Below are positions 3,665 through 48,205 of a DNA stretch of 64,000 nt, in pieces; positions within the stretch are counted from its first letter, which is position 1; each line of letters opens with the position of its first letter. The notes under the pieces were generated by a model. That model searched no databases. It saw only the letters and a program-made list of their open reading frames with translations, and was not told the origin of the DNA. The position numbers and the translations under genes are program-made. The stretch is taken from IMG/VR virus record IMGVR_UViG_3300027917_004314; one strand, 5' to 3'. The stretch comes from a virus (Duplodnaviria > Caudoviricetes).

Positions 3665-5644
3665 ATGAAGGTTAAAAATTCTAATGGAAGGAAAGGAGAA
3701 CGGGAAATGAGCGAAATCACAGACATTTTTTCTGCCCTTGCGAAATGTAATGTTAAAGAGGATACCACTCCGTGGTCTGGGACTTTGAAAGATTATCTCC
3801 CTATGGTTATTGATGACCCAAATCTCAACGAGACTGCGCATGCTAGAATATGTAGAATGATTGAAAGTAAAGGGGTAGAGTTTGAAGACGAAGAGAAAAA
3901 AGAACACCCGCGCTATAAATTCTTCACTGACGATTTGTTTGGTATTAATCATGTAATAGAAAAAACTATGAAGTTTTTTAGAGGTGCGGCAGCAGGATCT
4001 GAAGTTAGAAAGAGGATATTGTTACTTTGGGGGCCAACCAGCTCTGGTAAAAGCGAATTTGTAATTCTATTAAAGAAGGGCTTAGAGGAGTTTTCAAAAA
4101 CCAAAGAAGGAAGAGTTTTTGCAATAGATGGTTGTCCCATGTTTGAAAATCCGTTGAATGCTATACCAATTCCGCAGAGGAAACTGCTGAAAGAAAAATA
4201 TGACCTTGTAATTGAGGGAGAGTTGTGTCCGCGTTGTGCTTATAAATTAGCACACGATCCGAAATTTTCTGGTAAGTGGGAAAATATTCCTGTTAAAAGA
4301 ATATTTCTTTCTGAAATGAATAGAACAGGCATTGGTACTTTTCAACCGGGGGATAGAAAAAGCCAATCGCAGTCAGAACTTGTTGGCTCTGTGAATTTTG
4401 CGCAATTGGAAGAATATGGTGTGGAATCACATCCACTCGCTTATAATTTTGACGGAGAATTAAATGTTGCAAACAGAGGCTTAATGGAATTTATTGAGCT
4501 ATTAAAAGTAGATCCCAAATTCCGACACATACTTTTAACCCTTACACAGGAGAAGAGAATCAAAGTAGAACGTTTTCCTCTTATTTTTGCTGATTTGTTT
4601 CCAATTGCACACAGTAATGAAACCGAATTTGTAAAATTCAAAGCCGATAAAGCCGAGGAAGCCTTACATGATCGAACCAGTTTAATGAAATTCCCCTACA
4701 ATCTAATCCTCAACGAAGAAGTAAGAATCTATGAGAAACTTATTTGTCATACGCCGGGCTTTAAAAATATTCATATTGCTCCACATACATTAAAAATTGC
4801 CTCGATGTTTGCTATTTTGTCCCGACTTACGGAACCAAAAGATAAAAGTATTACACTGCTGCAAAAAATGCAACTTTATAATGGGGAAGAAGTAGACGGG
4901 TTTAGCAAAGAAAATATAAAGGATCTACAAAAAGAATCAGAGCGGGAGGGGCTAGATGGTATTTCTCCAAGATATATCGTTAATTGCCTATCTGACTGCT
5001 TCGCTAAGCCTGGAGTTACATATGTTACCCCCATAAGTGCTTTGCGTAGTATAAAAGAGAACCTTCCAACTAATGCGAAACTAGAAAATGATGAAGTGTC
5101 TAGACTTGAGAATTTAATTTCAGATTGCATCGTTGAATATAATAAAATTGCAACCAACGAGGTACAAAAAGCGTTTTTCGTGAATTTTGAGCGCGAAATT
5201 AAAAACTTATTAGAGAACTATTTGGATAATGTTGGTGCCTACTTAGATGACCACAAGACGAAGAACGAGTGGGGTGATATGGTGGATCCAGATGAAAACC
5301 TGATGAGAAGTGTTGAAGAAAAGGTAGAAATTACTAACCCTGGTAAAGACTCATTCCGTGAAGAGGTTTATCGTAAAATGTTGGAATCTAAGAATAAAAC
5401 TGGTGAATATGGTTATCAAAATCATCCAAAACTAAGGGAAGCGCTGGAAAAACAATTGTTTGACGAACGTGCAGATGTAATACGTCTTACAGTATCTTCG
5501 AGAAATCCAGACCCTGAAGCTTTAAGAAAGCTTAATGAAGTGATCGATGCGCTGGTTGTACATTATGGATATAATGCGGACAGTGCTAATGAGTTATTAC
5601 GATATGTAAATAATATTATGTCCAAGACCGCTAACAAGGGGTAA
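3665..5644 (+). CDS. prkA: PrkA/YeaG-family AAA+ serine protein kinase
   Basis: LLLWGPTSSGKS, GELNVANRGLMEFIE, GISPRY; followed by YeaH and SpoVR as in the conserved operon (alternative start 3707). Confidence 0.93.
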   Translation: MKVKNSNGRKGEREMSEITDIFSALAKCNVKEDTTPWSGTLKDYLPMVIDDPNLNETAHARICRMIESKGVEFEDEEKKEHPRYKFFTDDLFGINHVIEKTMKFFRGAAAGSEVRKRILLLWGPTSSGKSEFVILLKKGLEEFSKTKEGRVFAIDGCPMFENPLNAIPIPQRKLLKEKYDLVIEGELCPRCAYKLAHDPKFSGKWENIPVKRIFLSEMNRTGIGTFQPGDRKSQSQSELVGSVNFAQLEEYGVESHPLAYNFDGELNVANRGLMEFIELLKVDPKFRHILLTLTQEKRIKVERFPLIFADLFPIAHSNETEFVKFKADKAEEALHDRTSLMKFPYNLILNEEVRIYEKLICHTPGFKNIHIAPHTLKIASMFAILSRLTEPKDKSITLLQKMQLYNGEEVDGFSKENIKDLQKESEREGLDGISPRYIVNCLSDCFAKPGVTYVTPISALRSIKENLPTNAKLENDEVSRLENLISDCIVEYNKIATNEVQKAFFVNFEREIKNLLENYLDNVGAYLDDHKTKNEWGDMVDPDENLMRSVEEKVEITNPGKDSFREEVYRKMLESKNKTGEYGYQNHPKLREALEKQLFDERADVIRLTVSSRNPDPEALRKLNEVIDALVVHYGYNADSANELLRYVNNIMSKTANKG

Positions 5645-22659: not shown

Positions 22660-23415
22660 ATGATAGTTTATATAAAAGATAGAGAAGATATAGAAAATTT
22701 TAAATTGGTTGGCAAATGCACTGCGGAAATACTTTCAATATTACTTAACAAAGCAAAAGAAGGAGTAACTACTAGAGAACTTGATTCAGTGGCACAAACA
22801 GAATGCCAAAATCGCGGCGTCACGCCGGCATTTTTAAACTATCGCGGCTTCCCGGCCGCGATTTGCACATCTGTCAATAAAACTTTGGTGCACGGGGTTC
22901 CTGATGATACGGCCCTTGTAAACGGTGACATATTGTCGATAGATATTGGTGTAGAAAAACAAGGATATATAGGAGACTCAGCTGAGTCCATTATCGTGGG
23001 CGGCGAACCAAATGATTTGATAGAGAAATGTAGGATCGCTTTAAAAAATGGAATTGACAAGGTTAGGGCTGGCAACAGACTGAGCAACATATCACAAGCA
23101 ATTTATGACGTTTCTAGAAAAGCTGGATATTCGATAGCGCGTGGATATGGGGGGCATGGGATTGACAGACACCGTTTACATGCGGATCCCTTTGTGTCGA
23201 ACATTCCAGTTGAAGATGAAGACGACATAAAGTTGCGTCCAGGTATGATTATTGCCATAGAACCAATGTTAATCGCTTATAATAATGGAAAGACACGTGT
23301 GTCGGATCAAGACAACTGGTCCGTTATCGCAAGTGGCATGGCTGCTCATTGTGAACATACTATTTTAGTAACAGACGGGAAGCCATTTATTTTAACAGAT
23401 AGGAGTAATAATTGA
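22660..23415 (+). CDS. map: type I methionine aminopeptidase
   Basis: FPAAICTSVN, VHGVP, SIDIG, GDSAES, GHGI, AIEPM, HCEHTILVT metal-ligand motifs. Confidence 0.93.
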   Translation: MIVYIKDREDIENFKLVGKCTAEILSILLNKAKEGVTTRELDSVAQTECQNRGVTPAFLNYRGFPAAICTSVNKTLVHGVPDDTALVNGDILSIDIGVEKQGYIGDSAESIIVGGEPNDLIEKCRIALKNGIDKVRAGNRLSNISQAIYDVSRKAGYSIARGYGGHGIDRHRLHADPFVSNIPVEDEDDIKLRPGMIIAIEPMLIAYNNGKTRVSDQDNWSVIASGMAAHCEHTILVTDGKPFILTDRSNN

Positions 23416-24458
23416 TATCTCTAGATTCTTTGTTGTTGACCCCAAGCGGAGCCAAAAGGGCTGAAGAGATAGGGCCTGGAGATGACGTCTATATTTATAG
23501 GGGATCTAATATGGGTGTACAAGCTGTTACTTTTGTGAAAAGTGTTTCAAGTGAAGCCGTCGCTATAAAATATTACTCTAAAAACATATGCGTGGTGCCA
23601 AAAACAGCAAAAGTGATTGTTAGTGACGACAGAAGAAAACACTTATCAAAGGAAAAACAAGTGTCGGATGTTGGCCGGCATGACCTTGTTCATAGGAAAT
23701 TCGTAGATATTAGTATGGGCACAGCTGACGAGCCGCATGCCTATTCCATTGGCGCTTTACTCGGAGACGGTTGTTGTTGTGAAGGAAAAAACGCAATATA
23801 CATTAGCTCAGATAGCCGGCACATACCACAGTTTGTTGGAGAACAGCTAGGTGCCAAACATATAAGAAAACAAAGGGGAGATAACTACACATATATTATA
23901 AGCAATGGCATAGGGTGTGCGGGTAATGTGGGGCATCCGGCCGTTATTTGTCATCACTATAATAAGTGGTGTAAAAACAGAAAAGCACATCAAAAAATTG
24001 TTAACCTAGACATAATTAAGACATGGAATAGGGATAGCTGTATAAGATTTCTTTCCGGACTGTTGGACACAGACGGATCAATAGAAGTTGATGATATGCG
24101 CATTACCGTTAATTGGTTTAGTCAGTCGAAATCCATCATAGATGGTATATATTTTATAATTTTGTCGCTATGGCAGACTGAACCACTTATTTGTGTAGAT
24201 GGAAGGAGCAAATATGTGAACGGACCAGTGTACAAAATATATGTAAGGAAAAATTTATTCTCAAAAAGAATACTAGAGGAGTGTTCTCCACACCTATTAA
24301 AAAAGAAATGCGGTGAATTTGTCGGTAGGACACACAAAGCCTGTTATGGGTTTATAAAACCACAATTTATTTGTCAAGGCGAACAGCGTTTTTTAGATTT
24401 TGGCTTTGACGGCTTTTTTATAACTTCAAACCAAGGTGTTTTGGTGAGGGGAGATTAA
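23412..24458 (+). CDS. free-standing intein-like LAGLIDADG (DOD) homing endonuclease with degenerate Hint ends
   Basis: YSIGALLGDG and RFLSGLLDTDGSI blocks; N-terminus resembles intein block A, C-terminus resembles block G, but there is no Cys1 and no His-Asn. Confidence 0.75.
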   Translation: MISLDSLLLTPSGAKRAEEIGPGDDVYIYRGSNMGVQAVTFVKSVSSEAVAIKYYSKNICVVPKTAKVIVSDDRRKHLSKEKQVSDVGRHDLVHRKFVDISMGTADEPHAYSIGALLGDGCCCEGKNAIYISSDSRHIPQFVGEQLGAKHIRKQRGDNYTYIISNGIGCAGNVGHPAVICHHYNKWCKNRKAHQKIVNLDIIKTWNRDSCIRFLSGLLDTDGSIEVDDMRITVNWFSQSKSIIDGIYFIILSLWQTEPLICVDGRSKYVNGPVYKIYVRKNLFSKRILEECSPHLLKKKCGEFVGRTHKACYGFIKPQFICQGEQRFLDFGFDGFFITSNQGVLVRGD

Positions 24459-27405: not shown

Positions 27406-27614
27406 CAAAAGAAAAAATATTAAAATTCGAAGACGAAAGTTTTTTACGAGTAACAATAGAAGAAAACGGGGCAACAACTATTACTTTGCAGGCTAAGCAT
27501 CTGGGAAGCAATATTAAAACCACATCGGCTACTATAAATTTAAAGCCGGATGAAGTTATTGAGTTGGTTGCCTGGATGGGTCAGGAGTTAACGGATGAAT
27601 GCTCAAATGGTTGA
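27402..27614 (+). CDS. hypothetical protein
   Basis: ATGA overlap. Confidence 0.65.
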   Translation: MTKEKILKFEDESFLRVTIEENGATTITLQAKHLGSNIKTTSATINLKPDEVIELVAWMGQELTDECSNG

Positions 27615-28314
27615 ACGTGATTATTTGCCCATGTTGAGGCAGCTTGAAGAAAAAATCAAGAAAAATGTCCCAACATATGAGCTACGTTTTAAAAATGAAA
27701 GCACACTTATGAAAATAATGAGTAAAATTCTTTTTTTTAACAAGGGCTTTATGACGAAAGTTAAAACTGTGCTTGGTACGAAAGTATATTGGACAAGTAG
27801 GGAAGATTATGACCGAAACCCGCGCGAGACTTTTGGATCATTGGCACACGAATTCGTACATGTTATGGACTATAAAAGAAACCCAGTGAAATTTGCACTG
27901 GGTTATCTTTTTCCGCAAATTCTAGCTACGCCCGCACTATTGTTTGTGTTGTTGTCTCCCATATTGATTCCTTTGATTGTCTTCGGCGTGGTACCTGCTT
28001 GTGTACTGTGGGTGTTGCTTACAGCATTGTTCCTGGCACCAATACCATCTCTTGGTAGAAAATGGGCAGAAATGAGGGGCTACGGAATGAACATTAAACT
28101 TATGGTGTGGCTCTATGGCTTGTTTCCTAAACATTATAGAGAATGGTATGTCAGGCATTTTACGGGGCCAACATATTATTATATGTGGCCTTTCAAAAGA
28201 AGCATAGAAGAAGAAATAGATAAGTGGTCAGATCCATTTAATTTAGATTGTCTTGATGATACAAACCCAGCATACAGGGAAGTATATGACTTGTTGTTTC
28301 AACTAAGAGCATGA
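27595..28314 (+). CDS. putative membrane-associated HEXXH zinc metallopeptidase
   Basis: LAHEFVHV, then two hydrophobic helices and a WAEMRGY Glu. Confidence 0.6.
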   Translation: MNAQMVERDYLPMLRQLEEKIKKNVPTYELRFKNESTLMKIMSKILFFNKGFMTKVKTVLGTKVYWTSREDYDRNPRETFGSLAHEFVHVMDYKRNPVKFALGYLFPQILATPALLFVLLSPILIPLIVFGVVPACVLWVLLTALFLAPIPSLGRKWAEMRGYGMNIKLMVWLYGLFPKHYREWYVRHFTGPTYYYMWPFKRSIEEEIDKWSDPFNLDCLDDTNPAYREVYDLLFQLRA

Positions 28315-30371: not shown

Positions 30372-30671
30372 ATGAAATTGGTTAATAGCAAAGATATTAA
30401 ACAAATCGTTGATGATAAATCCGATCCAGGAGATCTATACGATTTTTTAGAAGAAGAATTAAAAAGCCCCTGCTGGGAAGTTAATGTTGACTGGGAGAAC
30501 GGCAAGCTTAGATTTCTAATTGATTCCAGGGAGCTAATGAATTATCCGTTATCTAAGCTTAATAAAGACGATATTAATTTACCCAACATATATGAGTGGC
30601 TTCAGATACTTAAGACCGAGGATATAAAGCTGCTTAGAAATACACTAAAAACTTTCGAGAAAAGGAAATGA
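30372..30671 (+). CDS. hypothetical protein (MKLVNSK N-terminus)
   Basis: GGAG RBS. Confidence 0.7.
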   Translation: MKLVNSKDIKQIVDDKSDPGDLYDFLEEELKSPCWEVNVDWENGKLRFLIDSRELMNYPLSKLNKDDINLPNIYEWLQILKTEDIKLLRNTLKTFEKRK

Positions 30672-31150
30672 AGGATAAAATCATGGCAAAAGAAGGAAAT
30701 GCGTTAGTTAGTAAGACTATATTGATAGTGTCACTGTGTGTGCTTGGGCTTGTTGCAGCGGTAGCCGGCGGATATTTATTGTGTGATCATCTCTGGGCTG
30801 GTGCGACTTGCAGCGAAGAAAGTCGTATACAATTATCAGCAAAGATGATAACAGATTTTGAGCAAGGCAAAGCGTTGTTTTGTGATTTATCAGAAGACGA
30901 AAGATTTGCGATTTGTCCCACTTATAGACTAACTGAGAAGTTTGACGATGGTGGTACAATTACAACGTACATATGTAGCCATACCACAGCGTATGCAGAG
31001 ACGCGCGATTTGGGTACGGAATCTAGGGCTAAGATTAATGAAAAATTAGAACTTTTTAGAGAAGTGGCAGATATCGAGGCTCATTGTACTACTAAAAGAG
31101 GAGTGGTGTACAAAATTGTCCAAGATGCACAAGAACCGACATTATACTAA
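30668..31150 (+). CDS. hypothetical membrane-anchored protein
   Basis: N-terminal hydrophobic helix; ATGA overlap. Confidence 0.7.
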   Translation: MKDKIMAKEGNALVSKTILIVSLCVLGLVAAVAGGYLLCDHLWAGATCSEESRIQLSAKMITDFEQGKALFCDLSEDERFAICPTYRLTEKFDDGGTITTYICSHTTAYAETRDLGTESRAKINEKLELFREVADIEAHCTTKRGVVYKIVQDAQEPTLY

Positions 31151-31424
31151 TGATTCGACGGGCCAGATACCACAAATACTCGAGAGTCTAATGAAAGCTC
31201 TGCACGATTTAGAAGTTGTGATGGAAAATTCTGCAGTTAAGGATAACCCAAGAGTGCAAGCTGCTAGAGAGAAACTGATCGAAACCATAAGGAAAGAAGT
31301 AGTTGCCACAGCAGACTTGGCCGCGTCAATTAAATTGGCCTATCCGCTATTAGAGCAACTGCAGAATGTTATGCCGGTCTCGTTTCCGTTTTCTAAAAAG
31401 GAAGATGATGAGGATAAATCCTAA
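31116..31424 (+). CDS. hypothetical protein (true start uncertain, possibly 31191)
   Basis: Helical ORF filling the operon. Confidence 0.55.
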   Translation: MSKMHKNRHYTNDSTGQIPQILESLMKALHDLEVVMENSAVKDNPRVQAAREKLIETIRKEVVATADLAASIKLAYPLLEQLQNVMPVSFPFSKKEDDEDKS

Positions 31425-31444
31425 CAGGGAGTGTCTACGGGATT

Positions 31445-31858
31445 TTGAAAAAAATCTTTCCGGCGCACAAGCCAAAACAATTGGAGTTTATTCAGCAGCG
31501 ACATACCAAGGATTGTGGTGTGGCTTGCGCAGCTATGCTCGCAGATCGAATGTATAAAGAGATAGAAGCTATTTTCCATATTTTAGAGAAATCTACAAGA
31601 AGCATATATCCCGATGATGTATTTGAAGTGTTGGATGAAATTGGCTATGACTATGATGAGGTGGCTCATCTGCCAAAAAGAGGCAGAGCGCTCGTAGCCA
31701 TAGAATGGAAAAATGAAGGTTTTACTGGCCATTATGTCGTTTGGGATAGTTCAAGGGGTCAATTTTTAGATCCCTTGCACGGTGTAATGGGCAAAAGAGA
31801 GATGCTGAAGTATGCTTCTATTGATTATATATGGAGAATAATAAGGAGAAAGAAGTGA
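31445..31858 (+). CDS. peptidase C39-like cysteine protease domain
   Basis: QQRHTKDCGVACAAM and GHYVVWD catalytic motifs. Confidence 0.8.
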   Translation: MKKIFPAHKPKQLEFIQQRHTKDCGVACAAMLADRMYKEIEAIFHILEKSTRSIYPDDVFEVLDEIGYDYDEVAHLPKRGRALVAIEWKNEGFTGHYVVWDSSRGQFLDPLHGVMGKREMLKYASIDYIWRIIRRKK

Positions 31859-32106
31859 AGCTGCTTAACGTAAAAAAATTGAAAAAAACCTCTGAGTATT
31901 CGATCTCTACGGCGAGTCCAATATTCAGGATAAAGGTTGTTAAGAAAGAACCATTAAAAATGCCCACAGCCTTCTCTTTTTTTATTCAGTATGTGTATGG
32001 CGTGGAGATCATACCATCATATAGAACTATACAAAAGAGCCAACGGGCTCTGAACAGAAAAGGTATGGGTAATATAGATGAGATTAATAAATACGAAAAA
32101 AGGTAA
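31855..32106 (+). CDS. hypothetical protein (VKLLNVKK N-terminus)
   Basis: AAGGAG RBS, GTGA overlap. Confidence 0.6.
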   Translation: MKLLNVKKLKKTSEYSISTASPIFRIKVVKKEPLKMPTAFSFFIQYVYGVEIIPSYRTIQKSQRALNRKGMGNIDEINKYEKR

Positions 32107-32662
32107 TCAACAACTCATAAGGCTCGTTGGACTGACCCCGGGAACTAGACTGGGCATATATTATGCCGATGCTATTGGCAGCGATAGAATTTTGTACACA
32201 GAATTTGCGGTCGGAAATATTGGAGATTATAATACGGCTCAAAGTAAAATAGTTCTTCTAAAAGATTACTTTAGAAGTGTGAGTCCGCTTCCCAGGGACA
32301 TACCAAAAAAAGGCGTCCTGAGAATTAGAAACCCTGACTCTGGTGCGTATATGAGGTTCCCGTATTGGTCAGTAAACAGGGCATCTAATATATTTTTTCT
32401 TAATAATGCTATCGGAAATATAACTGGTGGCAAAGATTTAGTAGAGGGACGCGAAGTGTTCATACCGTTTGTTGAACAACAAATCGTTGAAGGGTCAGAA
32501 ATATCTTATACAATTCAAAACGATGGCCAAGATATATCTGTGGTTATTAGGGCTAGAAAAAAAGGTTATCTCCCCATGCAACGGATAGCTTCCGCATCAA
32601 CATATATGCTCTTGAACCAACAAATCGACCCGATCTTTGAGCCGCTTGACAACCGCTCGTAA
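32078..32662 (+). CDS. hypothetical protein (MRLINTKK N-terminus)
   Basis: 194-aa ORF. Confidence 0.7.
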   Translation: MRLINTKKGNQQLIRLVGLTPGTRLGIYYADAIGSDRILYTEFAVGNIGDYNTAQSKIVLLKDYFRSVSPLPRDIPKKGVLRIRNPDSGAYMRFPYWSVNRASNIFFLNNAIGNITGGKDLVEGREVFIPFVEQQIVEGSEISYTIQNDGQDISVVIRARKKGYLPMQRIASASTYMLLNQQIDPIFEPLDNRS

Positions 32663-32702
32663 AGACTTATGTTATTAAGACTATAACATAAGGAGGCAAG
32701 AA

Positions 32703-33443
32703 ATGATGATGAAAATTAATAATATAGAACAAGCTCTTGAGATTATTGCAGAAAGTATCAGGCAGTCAACAGTGAGTGTAGAAATTCTCGCACCAGGTGC
32801 TAGTTCAAAAGAACAGCTGCTACATATCGTACATCAAATCAAGAAAGAAATATTCTGGAAAAGCATACGGTTAATGGCTTTTGGTGTGTTATTCCCAGAC
32901 AAAATATATCGCTCTAAAAAGAAAGAGTTCAAGAAAATCAAACGAGCCTGCAAGTTTATACTTAAATATAAGGGCTTGGACGAATATTTAGGAAAATTAT
33001 CATGGACGCATTTATTCGAGTTTGGCCCGTTTGCAAATGTTAGTTGGGTGCTTAAATACTATAGTTCTGGTGATTTACAAAGATCACAATCCAAATATAG
33101 AAGTGCAGATTCTAAAGGGCGTCCGCTTTTTGGTGGGTGTTTTGAGCGTTCTGGAGCAAAGTTAAAAGAGAATGAAACATACAGAGTGATCAGAATTGTT
33201 GATGAAAAAACAGGCCAAGACACATTTACAGTAGAAAAAAGGGAAAAGACACCGATAGAACAGAGACTTAAGATGCTTCCGATGTCTGCAACTATAGTAG
33301 TGTCCGAAAACGATAATATAATGATTGTCAAAAACATCTTAGAAGAGACACTAAAACAACTAAATCTGGAGCTTAATAAAGATTCAGAAGAAAAAATTGT
33401 CAAAAATGTGAGCAAAAAGATGGGGTTTCATGAAGATGAATGA
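32703..33443 (+). CDS. hypothetical protein
   Basis: AAGGAGG RBS. Confidence 0.75.
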   Translation: MMMKINNIEQALEIIAESIRQSTVSVEILAPGASSKEQLLHIVHQIKKEIFWKSIRLMAFGVLFPDKIYRSKKKEFKKIKRACKFILKYKGLDEYLGKLSWTHLFEFGPFANVSWVLKYYSSGDLQRSQSKYRSADSKGRPLFGGCFERSGAKLKENETYRVIRIVDEKTGQDTFTVEKREKTPIEQRLKMLPMSATIVVSENDNIMIVKNILEETLKQLNLELNKDSEEKIVKNVSKKMGFHEDE

Positions 33444-33741
33444 TAGGCTTAAAGAGTGGTTTGATACGAAAGGAAGAAGACTGGCTGAACTAAAAGCTGC
33501 TGGCGGCCAGGAGTATATGATTTTGGGGTACACGGAAAAGCTCACTAAAAAAGAGCTTGAAGAATTTAAGACTCTTGGAATACAAATGGATGCGCTTATC
33601 TGGGCGTTCATGCCGGACAATCTCGATGATCAAGAAAATTATATCCTAGAAATTAAAGAATTCTTTTCTGATATAGAAGATCCGTATTTTAAAGCAAAAG
33701 AGATTGTGAAAGGCAAAAAACTACCTAGAGGATACGCTTAA
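33430..33741 (+). CDS. hypothetical protein
   Basis: Coupled ORF. Confidence 0.65.
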   Translation: MKMNDRLKEWFDTKGRRLAELKAAGGQEYMILGYTEKLTKKELEEFKTLGIQMDALIWAFMPDNLDDQENYILEIKEFFSDIEDPYFKAKEIVKGKKLPRGYA

Positions 33742-33930
33742 ATGGCAAAAGTCATAAATTCTAAGGAGATAAGGGCCAAAAAACTTGTTGATGCTCTTAT
33801 CAAATCTATATCAAGACACTTCCAAAAACATCTGAATAAGTGTGTTGGTGATATCGCCACTGATCCCAACGGAAATTTTGATGTTTTCACCGATCCTATT
33901 TTACCCAAAAATAATAATAAAAAGTTATAA
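33742..33930 (+). CDS. hypothetical protein (MAKVINSK N-terminus)
   Basis: Abuts the previous stop. Confidence 0.6.
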   Translation: MAKVINSKEIRAKKLVDALIKSISRHFQKHLNKCVGDIATDPNGNFDVFTDPILPKNNNKKL

Positions 33931-33952
33931 ACATTGAGGAGGGTTATGGAAT

Positions 33953-34174
33953 TTGACAACTGTAATCAATAGTTCACAAAAAATATCTTATAAGGTTTAT
34001 GTAAGAGGTGTGGGCATGCGAATGGTTACGTTTGAGACGCTCCGGGTACCATGGTGGTACCGCATATTTCGGAAGCCAAATGGCAGGTTAATAGCGCTCG
34101 AAGAAATGGATGAGGGTTATCGAAGAGGGTGGAGCTTCGTGGCTTCGATCTTGATACCAGACGAATTAAAATGA
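33953..34174 (+). CDS. hypothetical protein
   Basis: GAGGAGG upstream; TTG start. Confidence 0.5.
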   Translation: MTTVINSSQKISYKVYVRGVGMRMVTFETLRVPWWYRIFRKPNGRLIALEEMDEGYRRGWSFVASILIPDELK

Positions 34175-34335
34175 AATTATTAAATGCGGGCAAACCATTG
34201 CTAATACATGAGTTAAAACAATGCCATGAATGCAAGCATATCTTTGTTTACAGTAGAAACATTATCAACCCCAAGCTAAATAAAATACTAATATATTGTC
34301 CAAATTGTGGGTATAAGATACGCATTTATCTATGA
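34171..34335 (+). CDS. zinc-ribbon protein (MKLLN family)
   Basis: ATGA overlap; CHEC...CPNC. Confidence 0.7.
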   Translation: MKLLNAGKPLLIHELKQCHECKHIFVYSRNIINPKLNKILIYCPNCGYKIRIYL

Positions 34336-34595
34336 GATGTTTTAATCCAAATAATAAAAACAGAGCCATAGTAAAAGAATTTTTCTGGACTTCTCAGTTT
34401 AATTGGCAGGGCAATAGGTATGTCAGCGCGGGTTCACATACGTTTACAGTAAAGTATCTTTGCCCCCGCTGTCGGTATCGGTCAGTGCAGATTACAGAAT
34501 ATGATGACGATGGGCCGTGGGAAATCGAATGCCCGCACTGTGGTCTTGATGTATTTATTCCGGCATCCGCCGAATTGACTAATAGGAAAAGATAA
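34332..34595 (+). CDS. zinc-ribbon protein
   Basis: CPRC...CPHC; ATGA overlap. Confidence 0.7.
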   Translation: MRCFNPNNKNRAIVKEFFWTSQFNWQGNRYVSAGSHTFTVKYLCPRCRYRSVQITEYDDDGPWEIECPHCGLDVFIPASAELTNRKR

Positions 34596-34936
34596 TGAAA
34601 GAAAAGAATAGCAACGACATATATATCAAAAAGATATCTGACAATCCAATACAAAATGGGCCAGATGAAAAGGATGCTTCGGATTTATATGTTACTTCTC
34701 CGTATCCATGGACACCAGTGTATGATATAGGCTCCTCAAAGGCAGAATATGTGCCCAGATGTGTTTCAATAAAGTTGCAGTTTTATTGTCCTACATGCTT
34801 TTCTATGTTTGTAATAGAACGTTCATATTTTAGGACAACTGATAAAATGACTTGTTTTTGTGGGACTAAGCTAAAATTTGAGAAGGCGCAGTGTTTTCGT
34901 ATGAGGAACGAGGAGTTTTTTTATGAAATTGCTTAA
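34595..34936 (+). CDS. zinc-ribbon protein
   Basis: CPTC...CFC. Confidence 0.65.
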   Translation: MKEKNSNDIYIKKISDNPIQNGPDEKDASDLYVTSPYPWTPVYDIGSSKAEYVPRCVSIKLQFYCPTCFSMFVIERSYFRTTDKMTCFCGTKLKFEKAQCFRMRNEEFFYEIA

Positions 34937-35108
34937 TGCAAAACGGAAATCTGAGAAATATGAAAGATTAGAAAAAAGTCTAAATATGTTAGTGGAAGAC
35001 GGTTATATAAAGGGCTGGAAAGATCTAAAGATTGATGGTAACGGTATATCGTATACAATAGTGCCTGTCGAACCTGTGAAATTCTGGGTATGTGACATAA
35101 AACTGTGA
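34923..35108 (+). CDS. hypothetical protein (MKLLNAK N-terminus)
   Basis: Coupled ORF. Confidence 0.6.
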   Translation: MKLLNAKRKSEKYERLEKSLNMLVEDGYIKGWKDLKIDGNGISYTIVPVEPVKFWVCDIKL

Positions 35109-35265
35109 GATTACTAAACTCCAGAGGCGGAACAGTAGTTGTGTCGCTTGCGAAAAATGTGCAGCAGCATTATATTTTTATATACGCCGGAATTATAAAA
35201 ATGCAAGCACATCTGTTTTTTGTCCATCTTGTGGGCAAGATTTGCTTGTGACCATAAAATCATGA
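35105..35265 (+). pseudogene. frameshifted MKLLN-family zinc-ribbon gene
   Basis: The GTG frame gives VRLLNSRG; the CEKC...CPSC ribbon lies in the -1 frame, which has no start codon and ends at TGA 35265. Confidence 0.55.
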
Positions 35266-35474
35266 GGGTTTTGAATAAAAAAACAAAAGTCCTGACATTT
35301 GACGAAGAACAAGACGATCCGCCTAATGGATTCCATTTTTTCTTGTCATGTCATTGTTTCCATTGTGCAGAAATGATTTATATCTACTGCAATAAAACGA
35401 AGCCGCGAAGATTTAATACGAATTGCCCATCTTGCGGGGCGGCAGCAAGTTGGTTTACTTCCCATGGATCATGA
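35262..35474 (+). CDS. zinc-ribbon protein (MRVLNKK), paralog 1
   Basis: CFHC..MIYIYC...CPSC. Confidence 0.75.
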   Translation: MRVLNKKTKVLTFDEEQDDPPNGFHFFLSCHCFHCAEMIYIYCNKTKPRRFNTNCPSCGAAASWFTSHGS

Positions 35475-35725
35475 AGATATTAAATAGCAAAATAAAAGTT
35501 CTGTCTTTCGTTAGCACAATTACAACTCACGAAGGTTTCTTTTTTTGGGGTAGTTGGACGTGTGACAGCTGCGATAAGAAAATGTTTATATACTGTAGTC
35601 ACAAGGGTCCTCATAAGTGGCTAAAAACACAATGCCCGCATTGCTCCGAGAAAGTATTTATAATGACGGTTCATGGGATTTTCGATGCACTTTCCACCAA
35701 GCTGGCCAAAACGCACAAATTATGA
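35471..35725 (+). CDS. zinc-ribbon protein (MKILNSK), paralog 2
   Basis: CDSC.KKMFIYC...CPHC. Confidence 0.75.
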   Translation: MKILNSKIKVLSFVSTITTHEGFFFWGSWTCDSCDKKMFIYCSHKGPHKWLKTQCPHCSEKVFIMTVHGIFDALSTKLAKTHKL

Positions 35726-35913
35726 AACTCCTGAACTCAAAAGTAAAAATTACGGTATTCGCAAAAAGAAAAACTCCATATCACGGCTTTCGACTTATCT
35801 GGGCCAGCAAATGTTGGGGCTGCAAAAAAGAAATGTACGTCTACTGTAACAAGAAATGCTCCTCGCCTTTTTGGTTTAATTGTCCCCATTGCAACTTCCC
35901 TTATTACGTATAA
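35722..35913 (+). CDS. zinc-ribbon protein (MKLLNSK), paralog 3
   Basis: CWGCKKEMYVYC...CPHC. Confidence 0.75.
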   Translation: MKLLNSKVKITVFAKRKTPYHGFRLIWASKCWGCKKEMYVYCNKKCSSPFWFNCPHCNFPYYV

Positions 35914-35924
35914 CCTATTAATAA

Positions 35925-35944
35925 CCTAGCATAATTATGCTAGG
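35925..35944. promoter_or_regulatory. perfect 20-bp palindrome CCTAGCATAATTATGCTAGG (operator or hairpin candidate)
   Basis: In the intergenic gap before the topoisomerase polyprotein, flanked by TATTAATA on both sides. Confidence 0.45.
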
Positions 35945-35978
35945 AGTATATTAATATTACGGCTGGTGGATTTAAATA

Positions 35979-47926: not shown

Positions 47927-48205
47927 ATGCTCATCAAAATTCCTAGCAGCAGACGTGGACACAGATGCGACTGCTGTCAGGTCGCAATTGCGACTCTTAA
48001 ACATACTTCTGGCATCTTTGTCCAGTTGGTGTGTGATGGGTGCAAGCAGCGCTATTGGTGGAGGTTTGGGATAGAGGACGTGGTGTCGGAAGACACGGAG
48101 TCCGTGTACCTCCGCAGCCCTGGGCTGCTAGGACTTAACGGAAGGACATACCGTTGCTGCAAGAAGTGCTGCAAGCGGTGGGAGAATTGTAGTTGTAGGA
48201 GGTAG
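47927..48205 (+). CDS. Cys-rich hypothetical protein
   Basis: AAGGAG RBS; several CxxC. Confidence 0.65.
   Translation: MLIKIPSSRRGHRCDCCQVAIATLKHTSGIFVQLVCDGCKQRYWWRFGIEDVVSEDTESVYLRSPGLLGLNGRTYRCCKKCCKRWENCSCRR

Follow-up and report, generated by a model that had tools for sequence, protein, structure and literature searches.

A shared N-terminal peptide on small proteins of a huge phage

The 64,000-nucleotide stretch analyzed here (IMG/VR virus record IMGVR_UViG_3300027917_004314, Caudoviricetes; hereafter "the window") comes from an uncultured huge phage, and a cluster of small genes within it encodes proteins, many of them without detectable similarity to one another, that begin with the same short peptide. 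This N-terminal sequence, referred to below as the tag, consists of Met, a basic residue, two hydrophobic residues, and an invariant Asn that is usually followed by Ser or Thr. Its occurrence is limited to a single clade of uncultured huge phages, where it persists when whole gene cassettes are replaced, and it probably serves as a short linear address that a single common partner recognizes.

The initial annotation of this sequence had listed ten tag starts, all of which (10/10) were found where it had placed them, and we recognized two further copies, one behind a TTG start at position 33953 (MTTVINSS) and a decayed one at 34332 (MRCFNPN). The cluster comprises about 21 small genes densely packed at 30.1 to 35.9 kb. 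Every long open reading frame (ORF) of the window lies on the plus strand, and the guanine-plus-cytosine (GC) content is ∼39% in the left 41.7 kb versus ∼52% in the right part. Over the three plus-strand frames the pattern [KR][LIV][LIV]N occurs 32 times; within 30.3 to 35.8 kb, nine of these occurrences directly follow a start codon. Elsewhere only two do so, at 47988 and 51666, where the ORFs are just 28 and 9 codons long; the earlier remark that the motif does not head ORFs in the right half holds, in that no real gene in the GC-rich part begins this way. A scan of the N termini of the window's long ORFs also returned no tag.

As a background we used the somewhat broader pattern [KR][LIVMTA][LIVF]N[STA], which has an internal frequency of 3.2e-4 per residue in real proteins. 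By chance, ∼0.1 tag starts would be expected among the ∼110 gene starts of the window, whereas 9 to 12 were observed in 5.5 kb (Poisson P <1e-14). When the window and its relatives are taken together, 25 to 34 of 292 gene starts are tagged. The proposed enrichment of the motif at N termini is thus borne out both by these counts relative to the internal frequency and by the untagged controls described below. We did not find a description of the motif in the open literature searched.

Selection acts on the peptide

A logo of 46 tags reads M, K/R (45/46), L/V/I (39/46), I/L/V (43/46), N (46/46), S/T (39/46), and then K/N/S/R. Some 15 variants place one to three added residues ahead of the hydrophobic-hydrophobic-Asn-Ser core, as in MAKVINS, MTTVINS, MKIKAINS, and MIICGINS. 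The codons vary synonymously, as the initial annotation had stated, with Ser encoded by both AGY (14) and TCN (16) and Leu by both TTR and CTN, and Asn is encoded by AAT in 76% of tags versus 73% in gene bodies. Because codon use at positions 3 to 6 matches that of the gene bodies, selection is on the peptide, as had been claimed. The same body-like codon families lead us to reject a nucleotide-level signal for these positions; such a signal is still entertained solely for the first base of codon 2, an A that is present in 45/46 tags, with Arg always encoded by AGR (12/12). The preference for K/R at position 2 is therefore partly a nucleotide effect, and an A at this position fits the ATGA and GTGA start-stop overlaps of tightly coupled genes. 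An ATGA or −1 overlap with the upstream stop codon is found for 52% of tagged genes versus 21% of untagged small ORFs, and a Shine-Dalgarno-like 4-mer precedes 73% of tagged genes versus 50% elsewhere. We also considered an N-x-S/T glycosylation sequon and rejected it: the Ser or Thr of the tag directly follows the Asn, and position 7 is S/T in 8/46 tags. A Lys-Asn isopeptide "catcher" was entertained as a further conceivable role.

The tag is far better conserved than the bodies of the proteins that carry it. Pairwise identity between orthologues at tag positions 2 to 6 versus the rest of the protein is 0.85 versus 0.37 in family A (the 30372 protein), 1.0 versus 0.33 in family C (33742), and 0.60 versus 0.24 in family H (34923).

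The tag is confined to one clade and outlasts its carriers

Relatives of the window were found with the neighboring flavin adenine dinucleotide (FAD) oxidoreductase, the HExxH protein encoded upstream of the cluster, and family A as queries. Syntenic regions occur in at least 10 related contigs (L001/G001 [316 kb], L002/L003, L005, L006, L010/G002, L030, L034, L036, and L111), and all of these are tagged, on orthologues of the window genes as well as on many more unrelated small proteins. The tag is retained across contigs with GC contents of 0.31 to 0.45. Family A keeps it in all clade relatives; orthologues in family C begin MKVINSK, MTKVINSR, and MRTINSR; and orthologues of the decayed family F protein carry the tags MRLINVS and MKVVNTK. 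In the 316-kb contig the strict form of the tag heads 11 ORFs of 55 to 130 amino acids (aa) on the coding strand, versus 0 on the opposite strand and 0 in a reversed-sequence control. Some of these belong to the syntenic cluster and the rest are spread over four further places, and four tagged SH3-like paralogues of this contig sit within a sugar-metabolism operon.

Outside the clade the tag disappears. The four closest loci among those bearing a homologue of the HExxH protein (a zincin-like protein, see below) contain 13 strict tags, and the other 66 zincin-bearing loci, from other phages with distant homologues of this protein, contain 0 in 0.98 Mb searched on both strands. Phage G yielded 3 pattern matches versus 3 in its control, and LR756511, a 595-kb uncultured phage, yielded 0. 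Two outgroups share the gene order of the window and lack the tag, namely, L008 (16 kb) and L103 (GC 0.32, ∼25 small genes). Their family A orthologues start with MRLKMDLEKE and MKTQKEIDK, respectively, and the L008 protein aligns with family A at an hhalign probability of 98.9% from residue 9 onward. Family A has 68 cluster representatives in a large library, and about half of the 61 usable ones are tagged. These comparisons indicate that the tag is dispensable for the fold and was acquired.

Comparison of the window with its closest relative, L030, shows two tagged genes swapped for two unrelated tagged genes, and a zinc-ribbon array replaced by an epimerase gene and another tagged gene. The idea that the tag codons served as recombination junctions was rejected, as homology between the two genomes breaks off at the ends of genes or in intergenic stretches, outside the tag. 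In L109, both tagged genes (1267, MKFFTT; 2196, GTG-KLITKK) have Thr where other genomes have Asn, which may reflect a genome-wide covariation of the tag.

Diversity of the tagged proteins

The initial annotation had described the tagged proteins as otherwise unrelated, which stands for several of them and fails for the zinc-ribbon proteins. Five of its ten (34171, 35105, 35262, 35471, and 35722) are zinc-ribbon paralogues, which share a CxxC...CPxC pattern and mutual similarity, whereas the other carriers are without detectable similarity and the pattern is lacking in 30372, 31855, 32078, 33742, 33953, and 34923 (Table 1). With the first nine residues removed, hhalign linked the zinc-ribbon families at probabilities of 47 to 62% and gave less than 7% for all other family pairs. 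Since profile comparison links only the zinc-ribbon families, the tag in the window sits on about seven unrelated families rather than ten. Clustering of the tag-trimmed proteins by blastp gave 11 multimember families and 29 singletons, and across the clade the tag is found on at least 12 unrelated protein families.

The GTG start of the 31855 gene overlaps the stop codon of a C39-like peptidase gene as GTGA, and this architecture recurs in relatives (L002 at 7900, L006 at 2757, L036 at 13756, and L109 at 2196). At 35105, the tag shares one frame with the first ∼10 codons, whereas the zinc-ribbon body (CxxC...CPxC) is in frame +2, for which the ORF list gives no start codon; the body ends at the TGA at 35263 to 35265, in an ATGA overlap with the next gene. 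A pseudogene, a sequencing error, and ongoing gene birth are all conceivable here.

Table 1. Tagged genes of the window and two neighboring untagged peptidase-like genes
Coordinates	Strand	Length (aa)	N terminus	Family	Description
27595..28314	+				Untagged zincin-like HExxH protein, encoded immediately ahead of the cluster; motifs separated by a long hydrophobic stretch that apparently spans the membrane
30372..30671	+	99	MKLVNSK	A	Tagged; acidic linker and small alpha/beta domain
31445..31858	+	137			Untagged C39-like cysteine peptidase within the cluster; stand-alone
31855..32106	+	83	(M)KLLNVK		Tagged; GTG start
32078..32662	+	194	MRLINTK		Tagged; no relatives detectable
33742..33930	+	62	MAKVINSK	C	Tagged; one additional residue ahead of core
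33953..34174	+	73	MTTVINSS	D	Tagged; TTG start
34171..34335	+	54	MKLLNAG	E	Tagged zinc ribbon
34332..34595	+	87	MRCFNPN	F	Zinc ribbon with decayed tag
34923..35108	+	61	MKLLNAK	H	Tagged
35105..35265	+		RLLNSR		Frameshifted zinc-ribbon paralogue; GTG start, tag in frame 0, body in frame +2
35262..35474	+	70	MRVLNKK	G	Tagged zinc-ribbon paralogue
35471..35725	+	84	MKILNSK	G	Tagged zinc-ribbon paralogue
35722..35913	+	63	MKLLNSK	G	Tagged zinc-ribbon paralogue

Structure models place the tag outside the fold

AlphaFold2 (AF2) models were obtained for two tagged proteins. In that of family A, residues 1 to 30 have a predicted local distance difference test (pLDDT) score around or below 50 and the fold spans residues ∼31 to 95; in that of the 35722 zinc ribbon, residues 1 to 6 score <50 and the first strand covers residues 9 to 13. 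In both of these different folds the tag is thus modeled as a low-confidence segment outside the folded part, which suggests that it is flexible. In the SH3-like paralogues of the 316-kb relative, it stands immediately ahead of an F-x-I-G-D strand. A Foldseek search of the family A model against the PDB and the AlphaFold DB clusters gave no match at an E value of 0.001 or better.

Candidate readers encoded near the cluster

The HExxH protein encoded just upstream of the cluster has four invariant residues (H85, E86, H89, and E159) and no Pfam match, and its predicted structure bears a weak likeness to M48/M90-type zincins. All tag-bearing relatives with contigs that extend over the syntenic site have its gene there, and both tagless outgroups lack it at that site. 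The protein family is large and almost purely viral, its Atlas clusters reaching 526 members.

Within the cluster, the C39-like peptidase scores 21.4 bits against Pfam PF03412 (cut-off, 22), and its invariant columns include Q12, Q18, C24, H96, D101, and D109, a set that would correspond to the C39 catalytic residues, apparently intact. The gene is found at this position in most relatives and also in the tagless outgroups. A complex prediction of this peptidase with residues 1 to 35 of family A gave a score of 0.03, which counts neither for nor against an interaction. We regard it as a weak candidate reader, and as an obligatory reader it is unlikely, given its presence in tagless outgroups and its absence from G001.

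Two tag-bearing relatives encode PrkA proteins with 70 to 72% identity to that of the window, and PrkA of Bacillus subtilis is a Lon-like ATP-dependent AAA+ protease (PMC9512850).

Possible functions of the tag and alternative explanations

Our preferred reading, that the tag is probably an address read by one common partner, envisages a phage- or host-encoded protein that would bind the peptide in extended form, with specificity coming from the invariant Asn and the pair of hydrophobic residues ahead of it, and that would handle all tagged proteins as one class. The targeting signal proposed in the initial annotation survives to this extent: a peptide tag is present on several unrelated small proteins, is placed outside the modeled folds, is kept through cassette turnover, and is more conserved than the protein bodies. 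The part of that proposal that specified capsid packaging or ejection is unsupported, for reasons given below. If the tag is indeed an address, proteolytic processing or timed turnover is our tentative first choice for its consequence, with the HExxH protein, the in-cluster C39-like peptidase, the phage PrkA, and a host Clp protease as candidate proteases; loading into the prohead for coinjection, by analogy with the capsid-targeting sequence of phage T4, is an almost equally possible second, and docking on some other hub would account for the remainder. More speculatively, and in our judgment improbably, the tag might constitute a phage-encoded sorting or processing system together with the membrane zincin-like HExxH protein, both having been gained at one node. 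A single membrane protease would then read a code of six N-terminal residues, with the Asn as the key, on dozens of fast-evolving orphan effectors, and the code would coevolve with its reader, as is hinted at by L109, where Thr replaces Asn in both tagged genes.

Several points weigh against a tag with a dedicated partner. It comprises only 5 to 6 informative residues, and half of its copies in the window are paralogues, so that these copies are not independent. No known function could be assigned to the tagged proteins, and none of 20 compared with Pfam and PHROGs scored above threshold. The zincin is rejected as a sufficient marker of the tag by the 66 other zincin-bearing loci with 0 tags, and its co-occurrence with the tag in the clade may represent a single evolutionary event; the C39-like gene, for its part, is absent from the tag-rich 316-kb contig G001. 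The alignments behind the structure models are shallow, with 11 and 6 sequences, and disorder is not proved by a low pLDDT, so the models are supportive and not conclusive. A tree of the 61 usable family A representatives shows 19 tag-state changes versus 20.6 in shuffles, with labels that are noisy from start-codon miscalls; this tree is too poorly resolved to tell one gain of the tag from several. Finally, the commoner translational coupling of tagged genes means that translation may contribute.

Among known systems, the T4 capsid-targeting sequence has the most similar genomic signature, being likewise an extreme N-terminal peptide on unrelated proteins from hyperplastic loci. That sequence is ∼10 residues long, ends in a Glu-type site for the prohead protease, and has a demonstrated role in encapsidation; the present tag, in contrast, has 5 to 6 informative residues of another sequence, in which Asn never varies and Glu is nearly lacking over positions 1 to 10. 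In the T4 internal proteins, a short peptide at the extreme N terminus is the sole conserved part of diverse, fast-evolving small proteins encoded in variable loci (PMC3012670). By analogy, the tag could bind the scaffolding core, so that the proteins are packed in the head and injected with the DNA, and a prohead protease may trim it. The hyperplastic character of the locus, with cassette turnover and tandem duplication, would be in keeping with this, as would the low-confidence N-terminal peptide outside the modeled fold in two AF2 models and the location of the cluster directly upstream of large proteins with an [LI]-S-K-R-A motif. We nevertheless consider such capsid targeting unlikely. 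Glu is almost missing from positions 1 to 10 of the 46 tags (one at position 7, three at 8, and four at 10), and this, together with the lack of a conserved site after the tag, argues against a T4-type protease site, although a protease of other specificity is possible. The neighboring genes serve nucleotide metabolism, lysis, and accessory functions and include no head genes. A more widespread [LI]-[ST]-K-[RK] motif is already present on putative cargo proteins of the same genomes, and in the tagless outgroups too, so that a second capsid signal would not be needed. Unlikely to about the same degree, and like capsid targeting a special case of the address idea, is that the peptide is a degradation or processing signal, by which a protease or unfoldase recognizes the basic-hydrophobic-Asn sequence and removes or trims the proteins at a set time. 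Exposed basic and hydrophobic N-terminal peptides are reportedly typical ClpX signals (Flynn et al. 2003, a study cited in PMC5415555), and one class of ClpX N-motif reportedly starts with M-basic-hydrophobic-hydrophobic, as the tag does; the invariant Asn does not fit that consensus and is not known from ClpX N-motifs. The N-terminal signals of ClpX and other AAA+ proteins (as in lambda O and Dps) are likewise short, with a basic residue beside hydrophobic ones, and the tag, predicted here to be flexible, would like them act regardless of fold, but they constitute loose consensus classes across a proteome, whereas the present tag is near invariant, with a fixed Asn, on dozens of proteins of one clade. 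The double-glycine leaders cleaved by C39 peptidases offer another parallel, being N-terminal leaders on small proteins, and a C39-like gene with an apparently intact catalytic set lies in the cluster; unlike these leaders, which have 15 to 30 residues and a Gly-Gly, the tag is conserved over 6 residues, no Gly-Gly site was found in the 46 tags, and Gly is rare at positions 7 to 12. The zincin-like gene tracks the tag at the syntenic site, and the similarity of PrkA between the window and two tag-bearing relatives, with the Lon-like activity of its B. subtilis counterpart, also favors a proteolytic signal. Against it stand the untagged state of the 66 other zincin-bearing loci, the presence of the C39-like gene in tagless outgroups and its absence from G001, and the occurrence of PrkA in phages beyond the clade, e.g., Thermus phages.

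Other explanations dispense with a protein partner. Selection might favor efficient reinitiation and early elongation of tightly coupled small genes, acting on the initial five or six codons or on the nascent peptide, since codons 3 to 5 and the amino acids that they encode (K or N, then I or Y) can strongly alter expression, through the nucleotides as well as through the peptide (PMC6920384). Such translational ramp motifs resemble the tag in occupying the first five codons, in being rich in Lys, Asn, Ile, and Leu, and in acting partly through the peptide, and the A at codon 2, the exclusive use of AGR for Arg, and the excess of stop-start overlaps among tagged genes are all in line with a translational optimum. 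A ramp is a general property of the ribosome, however, whereas the tag has another residue order and is restricted to accessory genes of one clade; it is absent from the AT-rich L103, from L008 and phage G, and from ∼1 Mb of other phage DNA, and the long ORFs of the window go untagged. The Asn is invariant though its spacing from the start codon shifts by 1 to 3 residues, synonymous codons follow body usage, and most tagged genes (the 73% given above) have an ordinary Shine-Dalgarno-like 4-mer. The restriction to a clade and to accessory genes, the untagged long ORFs, and the variable spacing argue against a general translational optimum, less decisively than the evidence against a nucleotide signal or a relic of common descent, and we hold it to be quite improbable. 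Far less probable still is a historical relic, in which one ancestral gene gave rise to all carriers by tandem duplication, frameshift, and overprinting, with the N terminus being the part that has yet to diverge. The zinc-ribbon array is clearly tandem duplicated, and the frameshifted 35105 gene shows a route to a new body behind an old start. Tag identity nevertheless far exceeds body identity in deeply diverged contigs in which synonymous sites are free to vary; SH3-like paralogues, helical proteins, and zinc ribbons are tagged at distant sites in the genome; and the family A orthologue of an outgroup has a different N terminus.

If the tag does act through a common partner, it would group several dozen of the hundreds of orphan genes that huge phages carry beyond the reach of homology annotation into one functional class, and it would provide an experimental handle for finding the machine that handles these orphan proteins. 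Should its function be packaging or removal at a set time, it would show by what means these phages deploy accessory or antihost proteins and would represent a very short, portable signal for cargo loading or control.

Genomic context and additional features of the window

The tagged genes are accessory genes set amid genes for nucleotide metabolism and lysis. Identifiable genes of the window encode DnaB, PrkA/DUF444/SpoVR, ribonucleotide reductase, PhoH, methionine aminopeptidase, and dTMP kinase, as well as an amidase, ThyX, the FAD oxidoreductase, and a topoisomerase-IB-like protein. A megablast comparison of the region with GenBank phages gave no match, and a search for the locus with the downstream topoisomerase-IB protein found no relatives. 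A scan of 22 to 41.9 kb for promoters and terminators returned promoter-like sites at chance level and no pattern linked to the tagged genes.

Genes for sugar-nucleotide epimerases and for glycosyltransferases are interleaved with tagged small genes in two relatives (L030:14712-15659 and L011:3676-8494), which may be coincidental or may reflect a functional link. The large proteins encoded downstream of the cluster, and some small ones, start with another N-terminal motif, x-[LI]-S-K-R-A, to which G-E-V-x-x-F-P is often appended; also written [LI]-[ST]-K-[RK]-[AQ], it is found in the window (35979 and 39571), L030 (16973 and 18280), L103 (7953 and 8265), and L109 (2682). L041, another huge-phage contig that also has a zincin homologue, contains an array of at least eight genes (L041:1760-5900; also L039/L040:6032-6760) that share a longer N-terminal module, MK[IV]TK[RK]QLRRII[RK]E, which may be related to the [LI]-S-K-R-A motif.

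A perfect palindrome with an 8-bp stem is located at 35925 to 35944, between the small-gene cluster and the topoisomerase-like gene. The surrounding segment (35910 to 35953) is 93% identical to L030, versus ∼70 to 75% in the coding DNA on either side, and the palindrome is likely a conserved terminator or operator. The genes for methionine aminopeptidase and dTMP kinase are separated by a LAGLIDADG-type ORF at 23412 to 24458; the corresponding site is empty in L030 and holds an ORF of similar size in L001, and the ORF is probably a free-standing homing endonuclease insertion. The prkA gene of the window (3665 to 5644, 659 aa) is uninterrupted. Its relatives are contained in open frames of 1,073 aa (G001:C1:125931-129128) and 1,436 aa (G002:C1:42637-46926), in which unmatched insertions separate the matched segments; these insertions look like one intein in G001 and two in G002.

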